DNA from: a virus
Virus genome (UHGV): UHGV-1550212
DNA length: 64,000 bases
Strand: one strand, 5' to 3'
Part shown: positions 99 through 62,334 of the stretch, in pieces
How positions within the stretch are numbered: position 1 is the stretch's first letter
How the letters are laid out: each line of letters begins with the position of its first letter
Program-made: the position numbers and the translations under genes
Notes under the pieces: model-generated
Told to the model about the DNA's origin: nothing
The model's input: only the letters and a program-made list of their open reading frames with translations
Databases searched by the model: none

Positions 99-506
99 CT
101 ATTTGTAGAAAGCGCGATTAATTAACACCCAACGAGTTGTGTTGCCTGCAATAAGAATTGCATATGACATTGCGCCAGTTGCATTTGCTGATACATCTGA
201 GTAGCCTGCTGCATAGTACAATGGCCCATTATTAAATGCAAATGTTGTTGTCGCATTGCAAACTGTTGCATTGCCTACTCGATTAATAACACATGATTCG
301 CCATATGTTAAGTTTGACAATGCGCATGTTATTGCTGACGATGTCGTTATATTATGCACTGTGTTTGCGACTGCATTAAATGACGCAGATTCAAGCGTCG
401 CATTCGCCATCAACGCACTATCAATGAGGTCGCCAAATTGTGCCGAGGTGGGTTTATCTCCGGTTTCAAAATACGTTTTGAGTACCGAACGTGTTTGAAC
501 TGCCAT
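99..506 (-). CDS. putative tail-fibre-like virion protein
   Basis: 135-aa ORF, ATG confirmed (cat at 504-506 on + strand). N-terminus KTYFETGDKPTSAQFGDLIDS resembles N-termini of phage tail-fibre/structural proteins (recalled, not searched). Confidence 0.4.
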   Translation of the reverse strand: MAVQTRSVLKTYFETGDKPTSAQFGDLIDSALMANATLESASFNAVANTVHNITTSSAITCALSNLTYGESCVINRVGNATVCNATTTFAFNNGPLYYAAGYSDVSANATGAMSYAILIAGNTTRWVLINRAFYK

Positions 507-615
507 ATGTTTCGATGTTTTAAGTTATGCAATGTGACATGAAAGCAACACTGCAAACTTTCCATCGAATGCAATGTCGCCTACGTTATAACAAGAGATT
601 GAGCCAGATATGTGA

Positions 616-629
616 CCCCCCCCCCAGTT
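616..629. repeat. C10 homopolymer, left arm of inverted repeat
   Basis: CCCCCCCCCCAGTT (616-629) is the reverse complement of AACTGGGGGGGGG (920-932); the arms enclose the tandem-repeat cassette. Confidence 0.7.
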
Positions 630-727
630 CAATTTGAATGTCATAAAGCTTATGAGTTTTTCAAAAATTAAATTGTTTGTTTTATATATTTTGACTGCTC
701 ATATGTACATATCAAAACTCAAAAGAT

Positions 728-875
728 TTGCATCTTGCATCAAAACTCAAAAGTTTTGCATTTTGCATCAAAACAACATCTTAGTTGTTTTGCATCTTGC
801 ATCAAAACAACATCTTAGTTGTTTTGCATCTTGCATCAAAACAACATCTTAGTTGTTTTGCATCTTGCATCAAAA
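728..875 (+). repeat. tandem 34-bp direct repeats (about 4 copies) with TTGCAT(C/T)TTGCATC core
   Basis: TTTGCATCTTGCATCAAAACAACATCTTAGTTGT at 789-822 and 823-856, a partial copy at 857-875 and degenerate copies at 728-788; each unit carries the inverted repeat GTTGTTTTG / CAAAACAAC. Confidence 0.7.
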
Positions 876-904
876 ACTCAACTCACTTCAAAAACTCAAT
901 TCAT

Positions 905-1261
905 ATGCAAATCCCTCGTAACTGGGGGGGGGCACAACAAGCCCTCCAACAAAGAAAGCTGTTAAAGCAGTTCACCGTACATATTTATACTCGGTACACT
1001 ATACCAATTAGACTGACATTTCTTGATAGAGAATTGCCACAAGAAGTTGGTCCTATTAAAACAGTGACGCCAATGTTGTATGATAATAGTACAGCTATCA
1101 CAATTTACAAAGGCACGCAAGTGTTCTATGATTTGTACTATGATGAAGTTAAGTTTGCTACGCATATCATAGCAACACAAGGCAACACAAACTATGGTGA
1201 AATTGAATTTGACGCTGATGATATCAAAGCATCAGAATATGCAATATACATTGGTATTTGA
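905..1261 (+). CDS. hypothetical small protein; G9 homopolymer in codons 7-10
   Basis: ATG at 905-907 directly downstream of the tandem repeats; reading frame runs through the G9 tract (924-932) to the stop at 1261. The track's longer 785..1261 ORF starts inside the repeats (MFCILHQNN is repeat translation). Alternative start ATG 1075. Confidence 0.3.
   Translation: MQIPRNWGGAQQALQQRKLLKQFTVHIYTRYTIPIRLTFLDRELPQEVGPIKTVTPMLYDNSTAITIYKGTQVFYDLYYDEVKFATHIIATQGNTNYGEIEFDADDIKASEYAIYIGI
920..932. repeat. G9 homopolymer, right arm of inverted repeat; lies in codons 7-10 of ORF 905..1261
   Basis: AACTGGGGGGGGG; in frame the tract reads tgg ggg ggg gca (W G G A). Confidence 0.7.
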
Positions 1262-1330: not shown

Positions 1331-1365
1331 CAAAAAAGACTCAGCAATATTGCTGAGTCTTTTTA
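1331..1365. terminator. bidirectional hairpin terminator
   Basis: A-run, stem AAGACTCAGCAA / TTGCTGAGTCTT (1336-1361), T-run; lies between convergent ORFs 905..1261 (+) and 1381..2136 (-). Confidence 0.55.
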
Positions 1366-1380
1366 TGCATTTGCAGTTCA

Positions 1381-2136
1381 TTACAGCATATTCCAGTTTG
1401 TCATGTCATACATGTTGAAGTTGAACGCTGATGTAATATGTTCAAGAGCAGTCAAGATGTCATTACCAACTACTGGGTCATTTGCAATAAGCAAAATACA
1501 GTCAGTGACAGACGTATCGACCATGTTGCCTGCTTGAAAATCATTGAGCATTAGCCATTCAGCAAAGCAGTTGTCATAGTACGCAGGCTTGCCTGCAAAC
1601 ACTTTATCATCTCCAAATGATTCAAATGGGTGCGACAATGTCGATGCAAGCAGTTGAATGTCTTCATCTGTGCAATGAGATTCAATTCCCTCAAGCACAA
1701 TTGCTACACGCCACTCATTTGTCTCTGAATCGCCTCTATGAATTTCGTGAATCCAGGGTAAGCATGCAAGTGTATCACCACATGTCAAATTGACATTATC
1801 AAGTGTCTCACCTTGACCTGCGTAGCAATATAAAGTGGAGCCAGTGCCATAACGTAGACAGTCATTTACACTGACATTATCAAGATACACTGAACAAATT
1901 GACAATGCACCTGCACCAAGCCTGTTTGCGGGAATTGTCAACTTATATGTTGGCACGCCATTTGGCTGCACTGTGATAGGTGAGCCTGCTAAGAATTCAC
2001 CAGTGTCAGCATCATAGCATTCGACTTCTTGCATAGTCGCATATGCAGCTTCAAGCAGTGAACCATCTGCTTTATTGATAGCGCCGCTGATAATAGTGTC
2101 ACGAAGAGCCCCCCGCGATTGACTGCTGGCGTTCAA
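1381..2136 (-). CDS. hypothetical virion protein
   Basis: 251-aa ORF; start codon at 2134-2136 is TTG (no in-frame ATG upstream before a stop); first internal ATG is codon 35. Confidence 0.45.
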   Translation of the reverse strand: MNASSQSRGALRDTIISGAINKADGSLLEAAYATMQEVECYDADTGEFLAGSPITVQPNGVPTYKLTIPANRLGAGALSICSVYLDNVSVNDCLRYGTGSTLYCYAGQGETLDNVNLTCGDTLACLPWIHEIHRGDSETNEWRVAIVLEGIESHCTDEDIQLLASTLSHPFESFGDDKVFAGKPAYYDNCFAEWLMLNDFQAGNMVDTSVTDCILLIANDPVVGNDILTALEHITSAFNFNMYDMTNWNML

Positions 2137-2220
2137 ACCAGAGTTGAGTAGTTTTCATAAGCGAAAAGACTTTTGTATGTGAAATTTATTGACATATTAT
2201 ATATCATGCTGCACTACGCA

Positions 2221-2304: not shown

Positions 2305-2919
2305 TTACGATACAGTCCACGGGCAGTTTGCAGTAACCGTAACCGTAACTGCAGGAGTACCGGCCTGAGGAATCTTGATTTCCTGCTTGTCGAGCACCAG
2401 CGTCGGGTCACCAGCAGCCTGAACGATTGCAATCTGAGCAGTCTGGGCACCGTTGGCAGTTACCAAAATCGATGTCGTACGCTCATCAATCGTCAAGTTG
2501 GCGGGAATGTCAAGCTCAATGCTGAACGCAAACTCAGCGCTAGCACCAGGGTCACCAGTGATTGCCACACCGTTGTTGGTTTCTACACCAGCAACCGCGT
2601 ACTTTTCAGGCAGTTCGATAACGAACTCGCCGCCCTCAACGACGCTGAACGTCAGCTTCAATGAGTTAGATACACCGGTTACGGTAAGAGTACCGCCAGC
2701 CTTAGGAGCTGACATCTCTGAACCGTTGTCAAATGACACGAATTCAGCCTTTGCAGTCTGCTGCACATTGTACGTCGAAGGCGTCGAAATACCGGCACCC
2801 TGAACGGTTACGACACCAGTACGTGCAATACGACCAGTGTGGGCGTCAGCAGAGTTGGAAATTGAACCATTACCCGAACCAGATGTCGGGCTAAGTTTCA
2901 ACCATGCGGGTTTAGCCAT
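2305..2919 (-). CDS. BACON-like N-terminal-domain protein (tail/fibre associated)
   Basis: 204 aa, ATG confirmed. N-terminus MAKPAWLKLSPTSGSGNGSISNSADAHTGRIARTGVVTV fits the BACON pattern (W..SP.sGsGN.....a..HTGR..R.G..tv); paralogous N-terminus with 2976..3575 and 3647..7975. Confidence 0.55.
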   Translation of the reverse strand: MAKPAWLKLSPTSGSGNGSISNSADAHTGRIARTGVVTVQGAGISTPSTYNVQQTAKAEFVSFDNGSEMSAPKAGGTLTVTGVSNSLKLTFSVVEGGEFVIELPEKYAVAGVETNNGVAITGDPGASAEFAFSIELDIPANLTIDERTTSILVTANGAQTAQIAIVQAAGDPTLVLDKQEIKIPQAGTPAVTVTVTANCPWTVS

Positions 2920-2975
2920 TGTTCAAAATTGTTATAAAGTGAGTGTATATGTGTACAAAATTCGATGATTGCTCA

Positions 2976-3575
2976 TCAAAGAATTTTCCAAGAAGCATTT
3001 GATGTCAAGTTCATTGTGATTGTTGTGCCGTCATCATCGACTGTCACAGACTCTGTGCTCAATACAAGAGTTGCTGCCGCAGCTGCTTGAGTAATACTAA
3101 CATTCAATGACTTGCCACCAGGTGTCGTCACTGTCAATACAAATGATTTCTGTTCAATTGTCAAATTTTGCGGTATTGTAACTTCAATTGACCAAGCAAA
3201 CTTTGCAATATATCCAGGGTCATTTGCAATTGCTGTGTCATTTGTTGCAGCGGCGCCATTTGCTGTGTACGCAGTCGGAATGCTAAGATTCGGATTTGTA
3301 GTTGCAAACTTAAGTTTTGCTGCGTTAGACTCACCAGAAACGACAATTTTTGTGGCAGCAGCAATCACATTATATGATGCTGTGCCTGACACAAATTCTG
3401 CAAGAGCAGCTTGGTTAATCGTCGTTTGCTTTGTAACTGTAGGTGTAGTCTTCGTTTGCACAGTCGCAATTGTGCTACGAATGCCTCTACCTGTATGAGC
3501 TCCTGCAGTAAATGCCAGGATATCATTGCCTTCACCAGACATTGGTGAACACTGCGCCCATATAGCTTTTGCCAT
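2976..3575 (-). CDS. BACON-like N-terminal-domain protein (tail/fibre associated)
   Basis: 199 aa, ATG confirmed; N-terminus MAKAIWAQCSPMSGEGNDILAFTAGAHTGRGIRSTIATV paralogous to the two neighbours. Confidence 0.55.
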   Translation of the reverse strand: MAKAIWAQCSPMSGEGNDILAFTAGAHTGRGIRSTIATVQTKTTPTVTKQTTINQAALAEFVSGTASYNVIAAATKIVVSGESNAAKLKFATTNPNLSIPTAYTANGAAATNDTAIANDPGYIAKFAWSIEVTIPQNLTIEQKSFVLTVTTPGGKSLNVSITQAAAAATLVLSTESVTVDDDGTTITMNLTSNASWKIL

Positions 3576-3646
3576 TGTTACTGTGCAATTTTTAATTGTT
3601 TGACATGATATTTATATGCATTGCTTAAGCAATGTTGAATTGACAT

Positions 3647-6600
3647 TTATCGAACAAGGAATGACGTACCAACAACCATATTCGGGATTGCCAAGCCATT
3701 GCCAGACTGGCTTACTGCAACTGTGCCACTTGTGTAACCTGACAATGCTGCAGTAATTGTTGCCGACCTGCTGTTATCTGAACCCCAGTTATTTGCAGCG
3801 GACAATGTCGAACCTCTGATTGTGAATGCGCCATTGTTCGATGAGTACGTTGGAGTAACCGCAGCATCTGATGTTGTAGACTGACCTGTCGTGTACTTTG
3901 TGACAGTTCGACCTGTCGTAGACAATGTTGCAGTGCCACCAGCAGCCCCAAAGCTTGTAACAGTTGAGCTGACAATCAGAGTCTTCGTAGTCGAAGTCAC
4001 ACTGTTGGCTTCCTGTGTAGCAGTGATTGCTTTTGAGCCAGTTTGACCATTCAACGCAACCGTCATATTGACTGTAGCGGTTCTTGCAGAACCAGCAGTT
4101 GTGCCACGATTTGCAGCAGTCAATGAACCGGTTGTACTACTGTTAAGCGTAAAGCCAGTAGTTGTAGCCATACTGTATGAAATTGTACCGCCAGATGTAA
4201 TAGTAGTTTTTGAACCACTTGTGTACGTTGCTGTCTGCGAGTATGCTGGCGTGCCTGTTGGAGTCTTTGTTGCACCTGCTGCAGCAAATGTTGCATATGA
4301 TGTTGCTGTAGTAACTGTGACTGCACTGTATGATACACTGTTAGTTGCTTGATAGACATCAAGTGCTTTTGTAGCAGTCTTAGACCCTTCACCAGTAGCA
4401 GTTGCAGTCAAAGTGCCAATCTTTGTACGAGCTTTAACTGTAGTGCCAAGCGATGATGCGCTGACTTTTGTGCTATACGCAATGCTAACTGAGCCTGCCC
4501 TTGTGCTGCCAGACGTATATGTAATTGTCTGTGATGCACTGATGCCAGACATTGATGCGACTTCACCACCGCCAGCAGGAATATCTGATACAGAACCACC
4601 AGAGATTGTTACTGCGCCATATGTCGTAATTGCATTTGCAGCTTGGTACACATCGACTGCTTTTGTTCCAGATTTGCCATTGACTGTTACAGTAACAGTA
4701 GATGTTGTAATCTTTGTGCGGGCTTTAGCAGTAGTGCCAAGTGAACTACCAGACACTGCGCCAGTAGACGTTGTTACACCAGTACCAGACCATGATTTGC
4801 TGCCGCCAGACGTAACTGTCTGTGTTGAGCCACTTGACCACGTAACTGATTGACTGAATGACACCGTAGGCGTAACTGAGCCGCCTTTTGCAGGAATATC
4901 ACCATAAGTCATCGAAACTGTTGGCATGCCATATGTAGCAGCATTAGCATTTTGAGATGCAGTAGCAGTCTTTGTTCCACTGATAGTCTTTGTGCCTGCT
5001 GCGTTGTATGATGCAGTTGGCGTCCATGTAGCCTTTACAGTCTTTGTGACTGTTGGCGATGTTGTTGCACCACTTGCAGTAGTGCCTTTTGATGATGCGG
5101 TTATAGCACCAGTAGATGCATTGAGTGCAGTGAACAATCCTGATGCGCCTGGCCAGCTATATGATGTTGTAGTTGACAATGAACCATACGTAGATGCTGG
5201 CGCAGTAGTTGAAGTACTGCCACTACTAAAGTGGTATGTTACTGTGTTTGCACCATTTGACGGTGTAGATGTTCCGCCACCTGCAGCAATTGCAGGATAT
5301 GACATCGAACCAACTGCAATATTGAGTGCAGTCACATAGTTGCCTGCCTGATAAATCGTTGCAGACTTGCTGGCAGATTTGCCATTCATTGTGACTTTAA
5401 CAGTCAGTGTACCTGCAGTAGTCTGGTTAGATATTGTAGTGCCCTTTGATTGCACAGTGACTGTCGATGTGTACTCAATTGTTCCGCCGCTTGTCAGTGT
5501 TTCTGTCGTCTTTTCACCAGTAGCATATGTCGTAGTTTTGACTTGCGAATAAGTTACTGTACCAGATTTTACAGAACCGCCGCTTGCTGCAATGATAGTT
5601 GCAGACGGTGTCAAGTTAACTGTGATATCGCTATATGTAACTGTGCCAGCAGATTGAGCTGCTTGATAAACATCTGCAGCTTTTGATGCAGACTTACCGT
5701 TGAGTGCTACTGTGACAGTTAATGTGCCAATCTTTGTTCGTGGCTTAACTGATGTGCCAAGTGATGATGCAGATATACCTGCTGCTGGGCTATATGAAAT
5801 TGTGCCACCAGTAGTAATGTTCTGAGTTGATGTTGATGTGTATGTAGCAGTCTGCGAATATGACACATTGCCACTCTTAATTGTACCACCAGTTGCAGGA
5901 ATATCTGCTACAGTGAAGCTTGAAATTGTAACTGCGCCATATGACACAGTGTTTGCAGCTTGCTTGACTGTGCAAGAACCAGTTTTTGTAACACCGCCCT
6001 CAGTGTATGAGCCAGAAATTGTAATGCTGCGTTCTGCGCCTACGACTGTTGTGCGATTTGCTGCAGTTACTGTAGTAGTCGACAATGTAAAGCCAGTTGC
6101 TGAACCGCTAAGTGTTGCAGATACTGCAGCAGATGACGTTGAGCCTGATGCATATGTGTATGACGCTGTTGAAGTGATTGTAGTTGAACCGCCACCAGCT
6201 GCCAATGTTGCAGCGCCAGGTGTCAATGTCAAGCCATTCAGCGTCTTTGAGTTTGCAGTTTGTGTTGCAGTAGCAGTTTTTGTAGCAGACTTGCCATTGA
6301 TTGCTACCGTAACTGTGACAGCATTTGAAGCATCAGTAGAGCCTACATATGATGTGCCCATTGACGTTACAGTCAATGCGCCACTTGTCGTATTCAATGT
6401 CCAGCGTGACTTAGCAGTCATTGCATAAGACAATGTAGCACCACTTGTCAATGTGCCACCTGAGCCAGCTACGCCATTCCAAGTCCAGACTTGTGAATAT
6501 GAAACAGTTGGGTTTGATGTACCACCAGCAGGAGCAATGTTTGAATATGAGAACGTTCCAATGACAGGCGTTTCATAGACTTTAGCGCCTGCAGCTTGGT

Positions 6601-7975
6601 TAAACGTGATGTCTTTTGATGCAGACTTACCATTTGCGGTGACTGTCAAGGTAACAACAAATCCATTACGTGCAGCAGTAGAATTGTTGTTTGTCACTGC
6701 GACATTCAAGCCAGATAAGCTATAGCCTGTTACAGCAGTTTTGACCGCAGCAGTCCATGTGCCACCTGATGTGTTGCTGTCAGTTGAACCGCTGCTGTAT
6801 GTCATTGACTGCGTAAATGTTGCAGATGCATTGGCTGCAACAGTTTGACCTGCTACTGCAAGAGCAACTGGTGTTGTCTTTGTAATGACTGGCGTGCCAT
6901 ATGTAATGCTGTTAGCAGCTTGTGTAATCGATACAGTAGCAGTTGCATTGCCATATGACGCTGTGCCACTAAATGACCGAGCATCACCGACAGTCTTGCC
7001 ACGATTTGCAGATGTTACAGAATTTGCAGATATCGTAAATCCTGTTGCAGTGCCAGTAATTGTAGGCTTGACATTTGTTTCAGTAGATGTAACAACACCA
7101 TTCCATGTTACAGTGTAAGTGCCTGTGATTGTTGATGTTCCACCTGCTGCAGTATGACTTGTTGAATATGCGTTCAGAGCAAGTTTGTATACGACTGAGC
7201 CTGCTGCTTGTGAACATTTAACAGTCTTCGATAAGTCATGACCACTTACAGTCAGTGTTGGTGTAACTGCTGCAGTTGATGCATTGTTCGGTGTATTGAC
7301 AGTGATTGTTACAGGGCCTGTGCCAGATGCTTTTGAGACTGACCAACCTGCAGGTACGCCTGAAATTGTCCATGCAAAGTCAGGGTTACAAGAAATTGCG
7401 AATGTTTTCGATTCACCCTTTGCAACAAATGACAGAGTTTCTGGTGATACTGCCAATGTTGCACTTGCACCAGCTTGATTTACAGTAAATGCTGCAGACT
7501 CGCCACCAGGCGTTGACAATGTAAAAGTGAACGCCTTTGCAGCGATTGCAGTATGTGCATCAATCTGCACTCGTACAATCACTTCAAATTCAGCATTGAC
7601 ACCAGGGTCATTGTCAAAGTTTGTGTTGAGCTCGTAGTTTTTGCCTGCAACAGTCACGCCAAGCACTGTGCCGCTTGCAGTACCACCAGTACTGCCAAGC
7701 ACAAGTTTTTGTGCATTTGTGACGCATTTCAATGTTGCAATAGTGCCACCATTTGACGCAATGTTTGTAGATGCAACTGTAGCTCGTATAGTTTCACCAG
7801 GAGACTCTTGCAATACTGCACAGTTTTCAGTTACTACTGGTGAACCTGTAGTTGTTTGCGCAGTAAAGCTGCCAGACCTGTTATTTCGACCAGTATGCAC
7901 AGATGCTTTGACAGACAACTGTGAGTTGCCTGTGCCAACATCAGGTGTAACTGTCAACCAAGTAGGCTTTGCCAT
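3647..7975 (-). CDS. large tail fibre/adhesin-like protein with BACON-like N-terminus and tandem Ig-like repeats
   Basis: 1442 aa, ATG confirmed; BACON-like N-terminus, then very Thr/Ser/Gly/Ala/Val-rich repetitive beta-rich sequence with recurring GGT.SG, LNGKSASK and VYQA motifs typical of Ig-like repeat arrays. Confidence 0.6.
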   Translation of the reverse strand: MAKPTWLTVTPDVGTGNSQLSVKASVHTGRNNRSGSFTAQTTTGSPVVTENCAVLQESPGETIRATVASTNIASNGGTIATLKCVTNAQKLVLGSTGGTASGTVLGVTVAGKNYELNTNFDNDPGVNAEFEVIVRVQIDAHTAIAAKAFTFTLSTPGGESAAFTVNQAGASATLAVSPETLSFVAKGESKTFAISCNPDFAWTISGVPAGWSVSKASGTGPVTITVNTPNNASTAAVTPTLTVSGHDLSKTVKCSQAAGSVVYKLALNAYSTSHTAAGGTSTITGTYTVTWNGVVTSTETNVKPTITGTATGFTISANSVTSANRGKTVGDARSFSGTASYGNATATVSITQAANSITYGTPVITKTTPVALAVAGQTVAANASATFTQSMTYSSGSTDSNTSGGTWTAAVKTAVTGYSLSGLNVAVTNNNSTAARNGFVVTLTVTANGKSASKDITFNQAAGAKVYETPVIGTFSYSNIAPAGGTSNPTVSYSQVWTWNGVAGSGGTLTSGATLSYAMTAKSRWTLNTTSGALTVTSMGTSYVGSTDASNAVTVTVAINGKSATKTATATQTANSKTLNGLTLTPGAATLAAGGGSTTITSTASYTYASGSTSSAAVSATLSGSATGFTLSTTTVTAANRTTVVGAERSITISGSYTEGGVTKTGSCTVKQAANTVSYGAVTISSFTVADIPATGGTIKSGNVSYSQTATYTSTSTQNITTGGTISYSPAAGISASSLGTSVKPRTKIGTLTVTVALNGKSASKAADVYQAAQSAGTVTYSDITVNLTPSATIIAASGGSVKSGTVTYSQVKTTTYATGEKTTETLTSGGTIEYTSTVTVQSKGTTISNQTTAGTLTVKVTMNGKSASKSATIYQAGNYVTALNIAVGSMSYPAIAAGGGTSTPSNGANTVTYHFSSGSTSTTAPASTYGSLSTTTSYSWPGASGLFTALNASTGAITASSKGTTASGATTSPTVTKTVKATWTPTASYNAAGTKTISGTKTATASQNANAATYGMPTVSMTYGDIPAKGGSVTPTVSFSQSVTWSSGSTQTVTSGGSKSWSGTGVTTSTGAVSGSSLGTTAKARTKITTSTVTVTVNGKSGTKAVDVYQAANAITTYGAVTISGGSVSDIPAGGGEVASMSGISASQTITYTSGSTRAGSVSIAYSTKVSASSLGTTVKARTKIGTLTATATGEGSKTATKALDVYQATNSVSYSAVTVTTATSYATFAAAGATKTPTGTPAYSQTATYTSGSKTTITSGGTISYSMATTTGFTLNSSTTGSLTAANRGTTAGSARTATVNMTVALNGQTGSKAITATQEANSVTSTTKTLIVSSTVTSFGAAGGTATLSTTGRTVTKYTTGQSTTSDAAVTPTYSSNNGAFTIRGSTLSAANNWGSDNSRSATITAALSGYTSGTVAVSQSGNGLAIPNMVVGTSFLVR

Positions 7976-15160: not shown

Positions 15161-15232
15161 TTCGAATGTGCACACATGAGAATAGGTCTCTTCGAATGTG
15201 CACATATGAGAATAAGTCTCTTCGAATATGTA
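15161..15232 (-). repeat. tandem ~30-bp direct repeats (2.4 copies) with TGTGCACA palindromic core
   Basis: TTCGAATGTGCACACATGAGAATAGGTCTC (15161-15190), TTCGAATGTGCACATATGAGAATAAGTCTC (15191-15220), then a partial copy TTCGAATATGTACACA; sits between a terminator and the gene start. Confidence 0.6.
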
Positions 15233-15266
15233 CACAAAAAGAAGAGCTTGCATATGCAAGCTCTTC
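15233..15266 (-). terminator. rho-independent terminator
   Basis: Perfect palindrome GAAGAGCTTGCATATGCAAGCTCTTC (15241-15266) followed on the minus strand by TTTTTG; 43 nt downstream of the stop of 15309..15692. Confidence 0.55.
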
Positions 15267-18065: not shown

Positions 18066-18962
18066 TTACAATGTTCCGCAAAGCAATTCACGTAAATCCA
18101 TGCCAGCTTGTGTACTATACTGAGCAATAAGATTACGTTCTGAATCAGACATGCTCCAATAAATCTTATGCTGAGCTCTACGAATAATAGTATGAATGCC
18201 AGATGTGCTACAATTGAACTTCTTTGCAAGTTCTGCATGAGTTAACAAATCCGCATCGCCAAGGCCATACACATGTGTGAGTACAAGCTTTTCATTTTGA
18301 GTGAGTTGTTCAAATGCTCTTTGCAGAATCTTTGTGTTGCGTTTGTGAGCATCCTCGATTTCAAGAACTTCTTGGCCTGTTTTGAAGTCTGACCTCAAAT
18401 CATTCTGAACTGGTGACCATGCATCACCATCTTTATCAAGTGTAGTGTCATCCTTACTGGTGAATTGTTTGCCTTCAAGAGCTCTTTCATATGCTCCACG
18501 AATACCAGTAGATAATTGTTGACTTGTCAGATTGAGTTCGTCAAGCACATATTTCTTAATCCAAGGATATGCATATGTGCTAAACTTTGCTTCACGAACT
18601 CCTGCAGGCAATACGCCTTCTACGTAATTCTTGGCTGCTATTGACAATCCAAGATTGCCTGCTTGAATGACGTCATCCAATGGAACCGAGCGTTTGCCAG
18701 ATGCGAACCATAAGCTTCGTGCAACTGATATGACCAATCTTAAACAAGATTTGATAAGAGCTTCACGATTTTCTTGAGTCTTCTTGAATCGAGTAACATC
18801 ACAATATCGCTTTGCAGTAGCCAGCGATTTGACTTCTTCAGGAGTAAGCTCATTCTCCATCCTCATTTGCTTGAGCTCCTCCTTTGTGTATAGACGTTCT
18901 CTTGTGATTCTACCTACGTCCTTTACGTAGCCTTGATTGATTTGTGAATTTGAACCTGCCAT
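18066..18962 (-). CDS. sigma-70-family RNA polymerase sigma factor
   Basis: 298 aa, ATG confirmed. DDVIQAGNLGLSIAAKNYV...KFSTYAYPWIKKYVLDEL matches sigma-70 region 2 (DLIQEGNIGLMKAV...RFSTYATWWIRQAI); C-terminal HAELAKKFNCSTSGIHTIIRRAQHKI is a region-4-like helix-turn-helix. Confidence 0.6.
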   Translation of the reverse strand: MAGSNSQINQGYVKDVGRITRERLYTKEELKQMRMENELTPEEVKSLATAKRYCDVTRFKKTQENREALIKSCLRLVISVARSLWFASGKRSVPLDDVIQAGNLGLSIAAKNYVEGVLPAGVREAKFSTYAYPWIKKYVLDELNLTSQQLSTGIRGAYERALEGKQFTSKDDTTLDKDGDAWSPVQNDLRSDFKTGQEVLEIEDAHKRNTKILQRAFEQLTQNEKLVLTHVYGLGDADLLTHAELAKKFNCSTSGIHTIIRRAQHKIYWSMSDSERNLIAQYSTQAGMDLRELLCGTL

Positions 18963-41363: not shown

Positions 41364-41732
41364 TTATTTGATTGCACGTTCAAACATTCTGCAGCACCAG
41401 TCTTTATATGCAGGATTGCCCTTGACATCTGCTCGGAATGCGCAGTTGATAAGAGTCTTCTCCTCATTAACAAAGCATGCATAACGGCAGTTTGCGCAAC
41501 AACGAGCATCTTCTTGTTTTGTGCAAAATGCTGCACATGTCATGTCATCTTCTGTGTTGCGAATTGTTTTTGTTGGCGTGTACTCATAAGTGCACTGACA
41601 AATGCCATTATGCTCACGATGAAAGAAGCAATTTTTGCAAATATGTGCAACTTCTTCAACTGGTGCTGATGCTGCATATGTTTGTTCTTGCTCTACTGCA
41701 GACTGTGCAGCAACTTTAGTCTTTTTTGCCAT
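41364..41732 (-). CDS. cysteine-rich protein (probable metal-binding)
   Basis: Track ORF 41364..41816 starts inside the tandem repeats; start placed at ATG 41730-41732 (MAKKTKVAAQ). 122 aa with 14 Cys including CKNCFF, CQC, CCANCRYAC, CC. Confidence 0.45.
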   Translation of the reverse strand: MAKKTKVAAQSAVEQEQTYAASAPVEEVAHICKNCFFHREHNGICQCTYEYTPTKTIRNTEDDMTCAAFCTKQEDARCCANCRYACFVNEEKTLINCAFRADVKGNPAYKDWCCRMFERAIK

Positions 41733-41757: not shown

Positions 41758-41832
41758 TTGTTTTGATGCAAAATGCAAAACAATATAAAATTGTTTTGAT
41801 GCAAAATGCAAAACAATATAAAATTGTTTTGA
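41758..41832 (-). repeat. tandem 33-bp repeats (2.3 copies) carrying the TGCATTTTGCATC core
   Basis: GTTTTGATGCAAAATGCAAAACAATATAAAATT x2 plus a partial copy; 26 nt upstream of the Cys-rich gene and just downstream of the ligase stop. Reverse complement of the motif in the 728-875 array. Confidence 0.6.
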
Positions 41833-41835
41833 TAT

Positions 41836-60701: not shown

Positions 60702-61079
60702 GCAAATATATTTTTGTTTGTATATGTACATAAAAGAGCAAGTTCTCAATGTGGAGAACTTGCTCAGCTGACCTGTTGCCAGGTGAAAGCGTGGTGCAGC
60801 ACCTTGTGCTGCAATGGCTATGCTGCCATCGCCATAACGGGCTGAGCATTGCCCAGCATCATTACACGACCAGCTGCATTAAGCGTACGCTTTGCTTTGT
60901 TGAAAAATTTGCCAGTTATCTGGTATCTGCACATCTATTCAAGCGACCTACTATGCAATCAAATGCCTGTCGAGCCCAATGTTTGAGCAGTTGTTTGTCA
61001 GATGCTCAGCTGACTGCAGTCTTTCTGAGTGTATCAAGTTCAGCGATTCTGCATCTTTGCTAAATGGCAATAGTTCAGG

Positions 61080-61155
61080 TGGACTCGCCGAGAATCGAAC
61101 TCGGGTCTTACATAGCGCATCCTTGACTTGGTCCTGTAAACAGGGTTGTCAACAT
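61080..61155 (-). pseudogene. tRNA-like 3' fragment (T-arm plus acceptor 3' strand only)
   Basis: Minus strand: CCGAG-TTCGATT-CTCGG followed by CGAGTCC-A, but no matching 5' acceptor strand, D-arm or anticodon arm within 80 nt upstream. Confidence 0.3.
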
Positions 61156-61160
61156 GCATT

Positions 61161-61231
61161 GCAATACGACAGGACTCGAACCTGCGACCTCGGATTGGAC
61201 GTCCGCGCTCTTACCGCTGAGCTACGTATTC
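61161..61231 (-). tRNA. tRNA, probably tRNA-Gly (anticodon TCC); Trp (CCA) not excluded
   Basis: Minus strand: GAATACG-TA-GCTC-AGCGGTAA-GAGC-GCGGA-CGTCCAA-TCCGA-GGTC-GCAGG-TTCGAGT-CCTGT-CGTATTG-C. Canonical D- and T-arms; anticodon stem has a G-A pair and position 33 is G, so the register is uncertain. Hand fold. Confidence 0.5.
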
Positions 61232-61321
61232 TTATCAATTGACTGCACTGCAATGCAATCAATCGTGCCAATGATATTTGACGCATAATTGCAGTTATGC
61301 GTAACAATTCAAATGTCATTG

Positions 61322-61394
61322 AGCCAACTGCAGGAGTCGAACCTGTAACCTGCTGATTACAAATCAGCTGCTCTGCCAATTGAGCTAAGTTGGC
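61322..61394 (-). tRNA. tRNA-Thr (anticodon TGT)
   Basis: Minus strand: GCCAACT-TA-GCTC-AATTGGCA-GAGC-A-GCTGA-TTTGTAA-TCAGC-AGGTT-ACAGG-TTCGACT-CCTGC-AGTTGGC-T; perfect 7-bp acceptor and 5-bp anticodon stem. Confidence 0.8.
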
Positions 61395-61476
61395 ATAAAG
61401 TCGTTGGGCCATTGCAACCCAAACCTATCATCTTTGTCTAACCAAAGATGCAAGTGTTCTCTTACACCACGACTTG

Positions 61477-61548
61477 TAGCCGAACTTGGAGTCGAACCAA
61501 GCTTTCGAGAATGAAAATCTCGCGTCCTAACCGATAGACGAAACGGCC
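61477..61548 (-). tRNA. tRNA-Glu (anticodon TTC), acceptor stem imperfect
   Basis: Minus strand: GGCCGTT-TC-GTCT-ATCGGTTA-GGAC-G-CGAGA-TTTTCAT-TCTCG-AAAG-CTTGG-TTCGACT-CCAAG-TTCGGCT-A; D-arm identical in form to E. coli tRNA-Glu, but acceptor pairs 6-67 and 7-66 are T-T. Confidence 0.5.
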
Positions 61549-61635
61549 AAGAGCAGTTCAAGTCTGCAGCATTGAACTGCGGAAACAATGCCTGTACGGG
61601 CAGCAAATTGTGCAGATACAGCGACATTGCAAAAT

Positions 61636-61728
61636 CACACCGAACCAAGTTTGTGGCTCTTCTGTCTCATAAAAACAAGTAATCATTACACTTGGCACCA
61701 ATGATTCTGATGTAAAAATCGGTGTGTT
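61636..61728. ncRNA. structured RNA-like element with 8-bp terminal inverted repeat (not a canonical tRNA)
   Basis: CACACCGA (61636-61643) pairs with TCGGTGTG (61721-61728); internal hairpin CAAGT-AATCATTAC-ACTTG; no T-loop consensus. Lies between tRNA-Glu and tRNA-Ser. Confidence 0.25.
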
Positions 61729-61731
61729 ATG

Positions 61732-61816
61732 CGGAGAGTAAGGGATTCGAACCCCTGGTACGTTGCCGTACAGTGGTTTTCAAGACCACCGCCATCGACC
61801 GCTCGGCCAACTCTCC
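61732..61816 (-). tRNA. tRNA-Ser (anticodon TGA), long variable arm
   Basis: Minus strand: GGAGAGT-TG-GCCG-AGCGGTCGAT-GGC-G-GTGGT-CTTGAAA-ACCAC-TGTACGGCAACGTACC-AGGGG-TTCGAAT-CCCTT-ACTCTCC-G. Confidence 0.8.
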
Positions 61817-62010
61817 ATAAAACATTGCATAAGCATTCTTATCTCTTGATGAGACCAAGTAGCTAATTTGGCAAGTTTGTTATATCTATCGTGACTGTTG
61901 CAGTTTGTTTGTCACTCAATACACAAAACTTTCGAACATTCATTGACAGCACTGCAATATCGCTTTTTAAGCTTAGCCATCAATGTATTTATGCAATGTA
62001 TAACAATTCG

Positions 62011-62092
62011 TAGCCAAACCGGGACTTGAACCCAGACTCCTAATGGAACAACATTTTGAGTGTTGCGTGTCTACCAATTCCACCATTTGGCC
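62011..62092 (-). tRNA. tRNA-Leu (anticodon CAA), long variable arm
   Basis: Minus strand: GGCCAAA-TG-GTG-GAATTGGTAGA-CAC-G-CAACA-CTCAAAA-TGTTG-TTCCATTAGGAGTC-TGGGT-TCAAGTC-CCGG-TTTGGCT-A. Confidence 0.75.
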
Positions 62093-62182
62093 ATTTACAA
62101 ATGCAATCTATTTCACAACTGTTTGCATTTGCATTGTTTAACACTAAAAATATGATTCATCTAATCAAAAACCAGAGAATTG

Positions 62183-62256
62183 TAGGGTAGACAGGACTCA
62201 AACCTGCGACCACGTGGTCCCAAACCACGCATTCTAATCAACTGAACTACTACCCT
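62183..62256 (-). tRNA. tRNA-Pro (anticodon TGG)
   Basis: Minus strand: AGGGTAG-TA-GTTC-AGTTGATTA-GAAT-G-CGTGG-TTTGGGA-CCACG-TGGTC-GCAGG-TTTGAGT-CCTGT-CTACCCT-A; all stems pair. Confidence 0.8.
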
Positions 62257-62262
62257 AAGTAG

Positions 62263-62334
62263 TTGAACCGTCTGGACTCGAACCAGAAATGGCTGAACCA
62301 AAATCAGCTGTGTTACCGATTACACCACGATTCA
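62263..62334 (-). tRNA. tRNA-Gln (anticodon TTG)
   Basis: Minus strand: TGAATCG-TG-GTG-TAATCGGTAA-CAC-A-GCTGA-TTTTGGT-TCAGC-CATT-TCTGG-TTCGAGT-CCAGA-CGGTTCA-A; U1-A72 as in bacterial tRNA-Gln. Confidence 0.75.

Follow-up and report, generated by a model that had tools for sequence, protein, structure and literature searches.

The 64,000 nucleotides analysed here (the window) are the first 64 kb of the ~175-kb virus genome UHGV-1550212, of which ~110 kb lie outside the window. Near the start of the window, region 611-1261 carries a C10 tract and a G9 tract on either side of a tandem repeat array, the G9 tract lying within a plus-strand open reading frame (ORF 905) that faces away from a tail-fibre-like gene at 99-506 [Table 1]. 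Comparison with related assemblies points to a multi-locus poly-G contingency system in which ORF 905 is phase-variable and the tracts do not act as recombination sites, and we consider this to be the likely explanation of the locus. In the mechanism that we propose, slipped-strand mispairing during replication of the phage DNA would alter the length of the tract; at 9 or 12 nt, ATG 905 would be in frame with the 118-aa protein, and at other lengths translation would run into a stop after ~20 codons. The same design at other genes, behind either the same leader or a second one referred to below as type A, would provide multiple loci near the tail-fibre region that switch stochastically, with the copy number of the array as a further variable. 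Switching would presumably be reversible within a phage population, and the switched proteins may have a role in the virion or in host range. As a whole, region 611-1261 is best read as a divergent control region together with a small accessory gene in a host-recognition module, and, as far as can be judged in silico, it displays every testable defining feature of a homopolymer contingency locus.

Tract length and reading frame of ORF 905

The C10 and G9 tracts are the only runs of at least nine bases in the 64 kb, in agreement with an earlier note on this DNA, which had described both tracts as unique in their length. From base composition, 0.008 runs of C of at least 10 and 0.025 runs of G of at least 9 would be expected. 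G or C runs of five or more number five in the window, three of which fall within the first 2.2 kb. The list of open reading frames likewise confirms the earlier placement of the G9 tract in codons 7-10 of the frame opened by ATG 905. The minus strand encodes nearly all of the window's genes, ORF 905-1261 being a lone plus-strand gene.

We compared 11 loci of this phage lineage at the DNA level, the window included, from different samples and assemblies. The tract of ORF 905 is G9 in the window, G10 in five loci (L064, L067, L068, L069 and L071), G11 in L072, G12 in L066 and G13 preceded by AAC in L065, and two further loci have interrupted forms, L070 with GGTG7 and L073 with GGTG6. Four of the 11 tracts leave the ATG in frame. 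A protein search of ENA, Logan and JGI assemblies returned 22 variants of ORF 905, seven of which are in frame with the ATG and start with MQIPRNWGG(G)A and seven of which are +1-frame read-throughs (...SLVTGG(G)AQQ); the remaining eight are calls from an internal ATG. Downstream of the tract, the 109 codons of the body contain no stop in any of the 11 loci, their indels are multiples of three, and the ratio of non-synonymous to synonymous polymorphism (pN/pS) is 0.3-0.6, evidence of an intact body under purifying selection. The proposal of the earlier note that a change of one nucleotide would switch ORF 905 by frameshift is thus supported by tracts that range from 9 to 13 nt among assemblies, or are interrupted, in front of an intact body.

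The closest relatives of the window differ from it at very few places. An alignment with L068 (MAFFT, 7,260 nt) contains no substitution and solely two differences, one extra G at 924-932 (G9 to G10) and one extra C at 2109-2114 (C6 to C7); that with L067 (MAFFT), also free of substitutions, shows solely the loss of two 34-bp units and the change from G9 to G10. Such differences could be sequencing or assembly errors in a genome that is in truth invariant, as long G runs and tandem repeats are classic sites of disagreement between short-read assemblies, and as the two same-strain assemblies differ from the window there alone, one of them having its first base in common with the window's contig and possibly sharing reads with it. 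Errors of this kind would, however, have to account for lengths of 6 to 13 nt over more than 10 samples and several assemblers, for stable interrupted forms in different samples (GGTG6-7 in L070 and L073), for base changes flanking the tracts, for differences of 3 nt that preserve the frame (G10 versus G7, G9 versus G12) and for tracts that occupy internal positions of long contigs, and we regard a purely technical origin as very unlikely. The concern raised in the earlier note that the homopolymers might be artefacts of a genome end is refuted. Position 1271 of the ENA scaffold L068 corresponds to position 1 of the window, the locus is internal in L068, L069, L064 and L004, and synteny crosses the contig junction; in relative 149023 (175,564 bp), the syntenic locus is also internal, with flanks matching both ends of the window's contig.

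Portable leader modules

Each of the two tracts belongs to a copy of a short leader module which, in the orientation of the gene that it precedes, consists of AAAAACTCA, 6-9 nt, an ATG, 12 nt and AAC-TG(n). The module encodes M-x4-N-W-G-G, the plus-strand copy reading MQIPRNWGG and the minus-strand copy MTFKLNWGGG, and the two copies in the window point away from each other. Two more single copies are found in the genome, one heading a 165-aa gene close to the end of the contig, the other heading a paralogue of ORF 905 at ~104.6 kb. In an alignment, the ATG and AACTGGGGGGG are invariant and at fixed spacing in all four.

The second leader, type A, is ~110 bp long and comprises an AT-rich promoter-like part, an ATG, MKTTQLWFERQQSIAGG and a poly-G tract. 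Its copies, which are 97-99% identical, stand before four or more different gene bodies of this genome and its relative (gene 1381-2136 and at least three others). The paralogous copy MKTPQFWFERQQGLAGG differs from it by four synonymous changes, which indicates that the type A leader is translated. Assemblies differ in the tract of this leader (G6, G7 or G8); in L071, G8 yields in-frame proteins of 259 and 233 aa. In the case of gene 1381-2136, a TTG start is in frame at G6 and the leader ATG at G8.

Leaders and bodies are found in more than one combination. In two phages (L004 5925-6020 and L052 4388-4440), the body of the 165-aa gene follows different leaders, MNITMNWGG, in frame, in one and MKTPQFWFERQQGLAGG, out of frame, in the other, and the sequences switch exactly at the poly-G tract, suggestive of an exchange of leaders by recombination at or near the tract. 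The ORF 905 paralogue has the same 68-bp leader as ORF 905 itself. In the two IMG/VR phages (L063 2112-2150, contig 152288, ~104.6 kb; L002 5001-5040, contig 149023), a non-G base breaks up its tract at one and the same position, but the base differs, giving G5TG4 in one phage and G5AG4 in the other; both tracts are 10 nt long and out of frame, and the two bodies, although divergent, are intact. In a third metagenome (L074), the tract is an in-frame G12. Pfam and PHROG scans assigned no family to ORF 905 or to the other switched genes, and an Rfam scan of positions 1-2500 returned nothing near gathering scores.

Several observations weigh against a phase-variable ORF 905. The evidence consists of consensus sequences from assemblies; long G runs are error-prone for assemblers and for Illumina chemistry, and the three same-strain assemblies are possibly not independent, L067 and the window's contig starting at the same base. 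About two thirds of the assemblies are out of frame, a proportion that fits a contingency equilibrium and would also fit a dispensable gene. The interrupted tracts of L063 and L002 look 'locked' out of frame, yet their bodies are intact, which suggests that expression may not depend on DNA tract length alone. Finally, the fold of ORF 905 is a generic beta-sandwich, and the frame that follows the C10 tract is not conserved.

Some of these points would be accommodated if the tracts were hypermutable without forming a true switch, either because the genes are dispensable and drifting or because expression is rescued at any tract length by RNA-polymerase slippage on the G run, by ribosomal frameshifting or by alternative TTG starts in the repeats. 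About one third of the assemblies fall in each frame, as drift would have it, and intact bodies do stand behind interrupted, out-of-frame tracts. In G10 strains, moreover, a TTG of the repeat unit is in frame with the body and is used by gene callers, and gene 1381-2136 is in frame with a TTG start at G6. On the other hand, all strains retain long tracts, as do several paralogous loci, whereas homopolymers without selection decay, and the gene bodies are under purifying selection. A programmed frameshift or slippage site would moreover be expected to have a constant length, whereas relatives span 6-13 nt. We consider the absence of a true switch to be unlikely, and contingency at the poly-G tracts to be the better account of the same data.

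The inverted repeat

The earlier note had described the C10 and G9 tracts as the arms of an inverted repeat and had proposed, as an alternative to frameshifting, that the cassette between them inverts. The complementarity is real and perfect over 13 nt (CCCCCCCCCAGTT and AACTGGGGGGGGG), with TGTG/CACA also in the arms and 290 nt separating them, but it is short, nine of its 13 positions are homopolymer, and the arms are two divergent copies of the leader module.

Under the inversion model, a recombinase would flip the ~300-bp segment between the arms and thereby redirect a promoter to the tail-fibre-like gene or to ORF 905. Invertible promoters are common in gut Bacteroidota, invertible tail-fibre segments occur in Mu and P1, and the perfect 13-nt repeat, with its 4-nt extensions, does flank a repeat-rich segment between divergent genes. 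The arms, however, have only AACT, the homopolymer and CACA in common, and the leader module also occurs singly. Relative 149023 keeps the C arm and the repeats without the G arm, ORF 905 being replaced there by the 3' remnant of a different gene. The interior of the cassette has the same orientation in all assemblies that contain it, and the chimeric N-terminus that inversion would create (MTFKLNWGG+AQQALQ) is present in none of the 22 protein variants. The junction pattern expected of an inverted segment had no match in metagenome contigs, in a search of low power given that only one contig there had the normal arm. No Resolvase or Phage_integrase domain was found among the 29 proteins of the window, a screen outside of which ~110 kb of the genome lie. 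Inversion of the cassette thus appears extremely improbable, and this part of the earlier proposal is not supported.

The tandem array as a probable regulatory element

Where the earlier note had counted four tandem repeats of 34 bp between the tracts, an array is indeed present, although it consists of 3.6 such copies (753-875) plus a related 28-bp unit in 2.3 copies (711-774). The units are all 9-bp palindromes (GTTGTTTTG-N10-CAAAACAAC), each built around two TTGCATC heptamers, and the array as a whole ends 28 nt before ATG 905. The motif TTGCATCAAAAC has nine matches in the window against 2.6 expected, seven of which are in two arrays. The second of these (41758-41833; 33 bp x2.3, 100% matches, with a TTGCATCAAAAC core) is also palindromic, with the ligase gene on one side and a small Cys-rich ORF (41364-41732) on the other, and it ends 27 nt before ATG 41732. 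The presence of a similar array 27-28 nt before another ATG favours a promoter/operator module for ORF 905, and, from this arrangement, the palindromic repeats are most likely the promoter or operator of that ORF. A scan for sigma-70 promoters returned nine sites against 5.9 expected (standard deviation 2.5), none of them usefully placed, and no sigma-70-type hexamer pair spanning either tract, the scan not covering Bacteroidota or phage-sigma promoters. Homopolymer switches in promoter spacers (Bordetella fim, Neisseria porA) have their tract between the -35 and -10 elements; both tracts of the window are downstream of an ATG.

The window encodes a phage sigma-70-like protein with Pfam regions 2 and 4 (18066-18962), and it is tempting to speculate that this sigma-like factor could be the reader of the TTGCAT-containing arrays. 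A further tandem repeat of 30 bp (15161-15236; 2.5 copies, 89% matches) is found at the start of the baseplate-wedge-like gene region.

The number of TTGCATCAAAA motifs in the array ranges from one to five among strains. A different view of the region would make it a replication origin or a recombination hot spot, with the palindromic units as iterons, the leaders as homology for the swapping of bodies and the homopolymers as incidental. Several palindromic tandem units in an AT-rich divergent region would suit an origin, and the swapping of bodies would be in line with the 68-bp leader found on two bodies, the type A leader on at least four, one body with different leaders in two phages, and the replacement of ORF 905 by the remnant of another gene in the relative. 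The varying number of units speaks against an origin, as does the equivalent array 27-28 nt before the ATG of another gene, which better suits a promoter or operator, and no replication-initiator gene adjoins the array. Cassette exchange, for its part, is compatible with a poly-G contingency system and leaves the polymorphism of the tracts unexplained. As an explanation of the locus in its own right, an origin or hot spot is therefore highly doubtful.

The minus-strand leader and the tail-fibre-like gene

On the minus strand, the tract is G10 in four loci and G9 in another four, and G8-T-G (10 nt in total), G8 and G7 occur once each. The 39-aa ORF in which it lies in the window was considered as a real conserved protein and rejected, since its frame after the tract differs among strains and three of the four substitutions after the tract are non-synonymous. 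A frameshift fusion of this ORF to the tail-fibre-like gene was rejected as well, all three frames being closed before ATG 506.

The leader RNA of this strand (660-470, minus sense) has a predicted fold of -49.7 kcal/mol (z = -4.0), in which the AUG and codons 2-4 of the tail-fibre-like gene pair with upstream sequence that includes UUGAACUG beside the tract. This is a single prediction, and nine leader sequences differ at ~5 positions. In this predicted structure, the G10/G7 frame alone would take ribosomes through the inner helices, to at most 18 nt from the AUG, and it is possible that the short upstream ORF exerts a translational coupling on the tail-fibre-like gene that is gated by tract length. 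This would be one possible effect of the C10 tract on that gene.

A more far-reaching view would see in these elements a 'phasome' of at least seven portable leader cassettes, placed by recombination before small host-recognition genes, with the C10 tract gating a tail-fibre-like operon by coupling, and serving to counter capsule phase variation in Bacteroidota. Only a tract of 7 or 10 nt (in principle also 13) in the C10 copy would then cause the short ORF to be translated through the leader RNA structure that pairs with the start codon of the tail-fibre-like gene, and translation through it would turn the gene on. We think this extended version of the contingency system improbable.

The earlier note's description of gene 99-506 as tail-fibre-like is only partly upheld. 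The gene has no Pfam or PHROG match. Its N-terminal ~30-45 residues alone resemble many phage proteins, the motif being present in 54 viral loci, and a few distant proteins with this motif carry the tail-collar domain PF07484; its 64 homologues are very diverse (43-100% identity, 134-152 aa). From this N-terminal resemblance the label is plausible but weak. Two partial copies of the segment encoding the N-terminus are found near the end of the window's contig (L052 4950-5110), and in L068 an inverted duplicate of ~225 bp with 87% identity (187-402 versus 1271-1495) corresponds to the 3' end of the gene. Repeats of this gene near contig ends probably explain where assemblers broke the circle.

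Phage and genome context

The virus is a large (~175-kb) uncultured T4-like gut myovirus. Recognisable genes in the window include a T4-type large terminase, a gp44-like clamp loader, a topoisomerase II, an NAD-dependent ligase, a sigma-70-like factor, a baseplate wedge protein and BACON-domain proteins. The nearest relatives of the terminase, at 32-47% identity, are from Chryseobacterium and Tenacibaculum phages, and a search of 50,697 GenBank phages gave no match at the DNA level. Related contigs derive from human-gut cohort assemblies. Samples in which the phage is present are SAMEA3664939, SAMEA3664609, SAMN13278780, SAMN14445766, SRR25933610 and SRR27381121, together with those of the assemblies ERZ27261301, ERZ19289353, ERZ27258720 and ERZ27279839. 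The host is probably a member of the Bacteroidota.

The elements of the divergent region and its surroundings are listed in Table 1. The palindrome at its centre is present in all assemblies, and the hairpin between the convergent genes 905-1261 and 1381-2136, read from the sequence and missed by a consensus scan, is probably a bidirectional terminator. Three successive BACON-type proteins (204, 199 and 1442 aa) are encoded at 2305-7975; they have in common the N-terminal motif MAKPxWL...SG.GN, and the largest contains internal repeats of ~110 nt with 74-77% identity. At 60727-62334 are seven tRNA genes (Gly-UCC, Thr, Glu, Ser, Leu, Pro and Gln) and a transfer-messenger RNA-like call by ARAGORN; the tRNA-Gly(UCC) would be able to read the GGG codons made by poly-G tracts.

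Table 1. Coordinates of the tracts, leaders, repeats and genes in and around region 611-1261.
Feature	Position	Strand	Basis
Gene of 135 aa, small and hypervariable, tentatively tail-fibre/collar-like, transcribed away from the cassette	99..506	-	ORF, N-terminal motif
Short ORF of the leader, 39 aa at G10 (MTFKLNWGGGHISG...), stop 18 nt before ATG 506	525..644	-	
Poly-G tract of the minus-strand leader module (C10 on the plus strand)	616..625	-	sequence, homopolymer count
Upstream element TTGAAAAACTCA of the minus-strand leader, mirror of 887-898	653..664	-	inverted repeat, leader alignment
Perfect 12-bp palindrome ATATGTACATAT, centre of the divergent region	701..712	.	
Tandem array, 28 bp x2.3 + 34 bp x3.6	711..875	+	
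Upstream element TTCAAAAACTCA of the plus-strand leader	887..898	+	inverted repeat, leader alignment
ORF 905, 118 aa: disordered leader peptide MQIPRNWGG, then small beta-sandwich domain	905..1261	+	
Poly-G tract G9, codons 7-10, putative frame switch of ORF 905	924..932	+	sequence, homopolymer count
Hairpin with flanking A/T runs	1333..1364	.	
Type A leader: ATG 2158, MKTTQLWFERQQSIAGG, C6 tract 2109-2114; heads gene 1381-2136	2096..2204	-	

Relation to known systems and significance

Poly-G phase variation is known from a few other phages; what differs here is the lineage, the habitat and the packaging in portable leaders. The closest parallel is provided by the Fletchervirus phages of Campylobacter, whose receptor-binding genes undergo poly-G phase variation (Sorensen et al. 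2021, Cell Rep 35:109214, following the description in PMC11959909; also cited in PMC10877375). As portrayed in these accounts, they too are virulent myoviruses with poly-G tracts in several host-recognition genes, the lengths of which shift the frame and so create subpopulations. The review PMC11959909 refers to phage phase variation in Campylobacter phages as 'an exceptional case'. The present phage differs from them in its lineage and in the presumed phylum of its host (a Bacteroidota-type gut phage), and it is known from assemblies alone. Its tracts are in short portable N-terminal leaders, 15 nt after the ATG and before unrelated bodies, and two of these modules stand back to back around a variable repeat array.

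Contingency loci have also been described in coliphages T2 and T4 and in other phages (Gomez, Barrick and Waters 2025, bioRxiv 10.1101/2025.10.21.683753). As proposed for the present case, simple-sequence repeats in phage genes are there associated with reversible polymerase slippage and bet-hedging. Most of the loci in T2 and T4 are short stretches of poly-A, 6-9 nt long, which lie within genes of every class (agt, for example) and are seen as rare read variants, whereas the present phage has G runs, 9-13 nt in length, which cluster in the 5'-terminal parts of a small number of genes and differ in consensus between assemblies.

Among bacterial systems, the arrangement recalls the opa genes of Neisseria, a multi-copy family with CTCTT pentamer repeats in the signal peptide and homologous bodies, the copies of which switch independently. 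Both have a conserved 5' leader that carries the slippery repeat, followed by variable bodies; unlike opa, the present genes are those of a phage, in which one and the same leader precedes small proteins unrelated to each other. Finally, the location beside host-recognition genes and the inverted repeat around a short segment are reminiscent of the G/Gin and C/Cin systems of Mu and P1 and of the invertible promoters of Bacteroidales. The behaviour of the locus is nonetheless unlike theirs: a single orientation is seen here, conservation of the repeat pair is lacking, and the screen of the window's proteins yielded no recombinase.

Gut Bacteroidota evade phages by stochastic switching of their surface structures, and, to our knowledge, the counter-strategies of phages are largely unknown, diversity-generating retroelements apart. 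Here, an abundant uncultured lineage of gut phages shows poly-G lengths that differ in consensus from one human sample to another at several small genes within the host-recognition region, and the exact loci and their predicted ON and OFF lengths can be checked on existing read sets. If the extended 'phasome' view were true, it would allow the adsorption apparatus to be reprogrammed combinatorially, in a heritable and reversible way. The poly-G contingency system that we favour would extend phage-encoded phase variation to the human gut virome.

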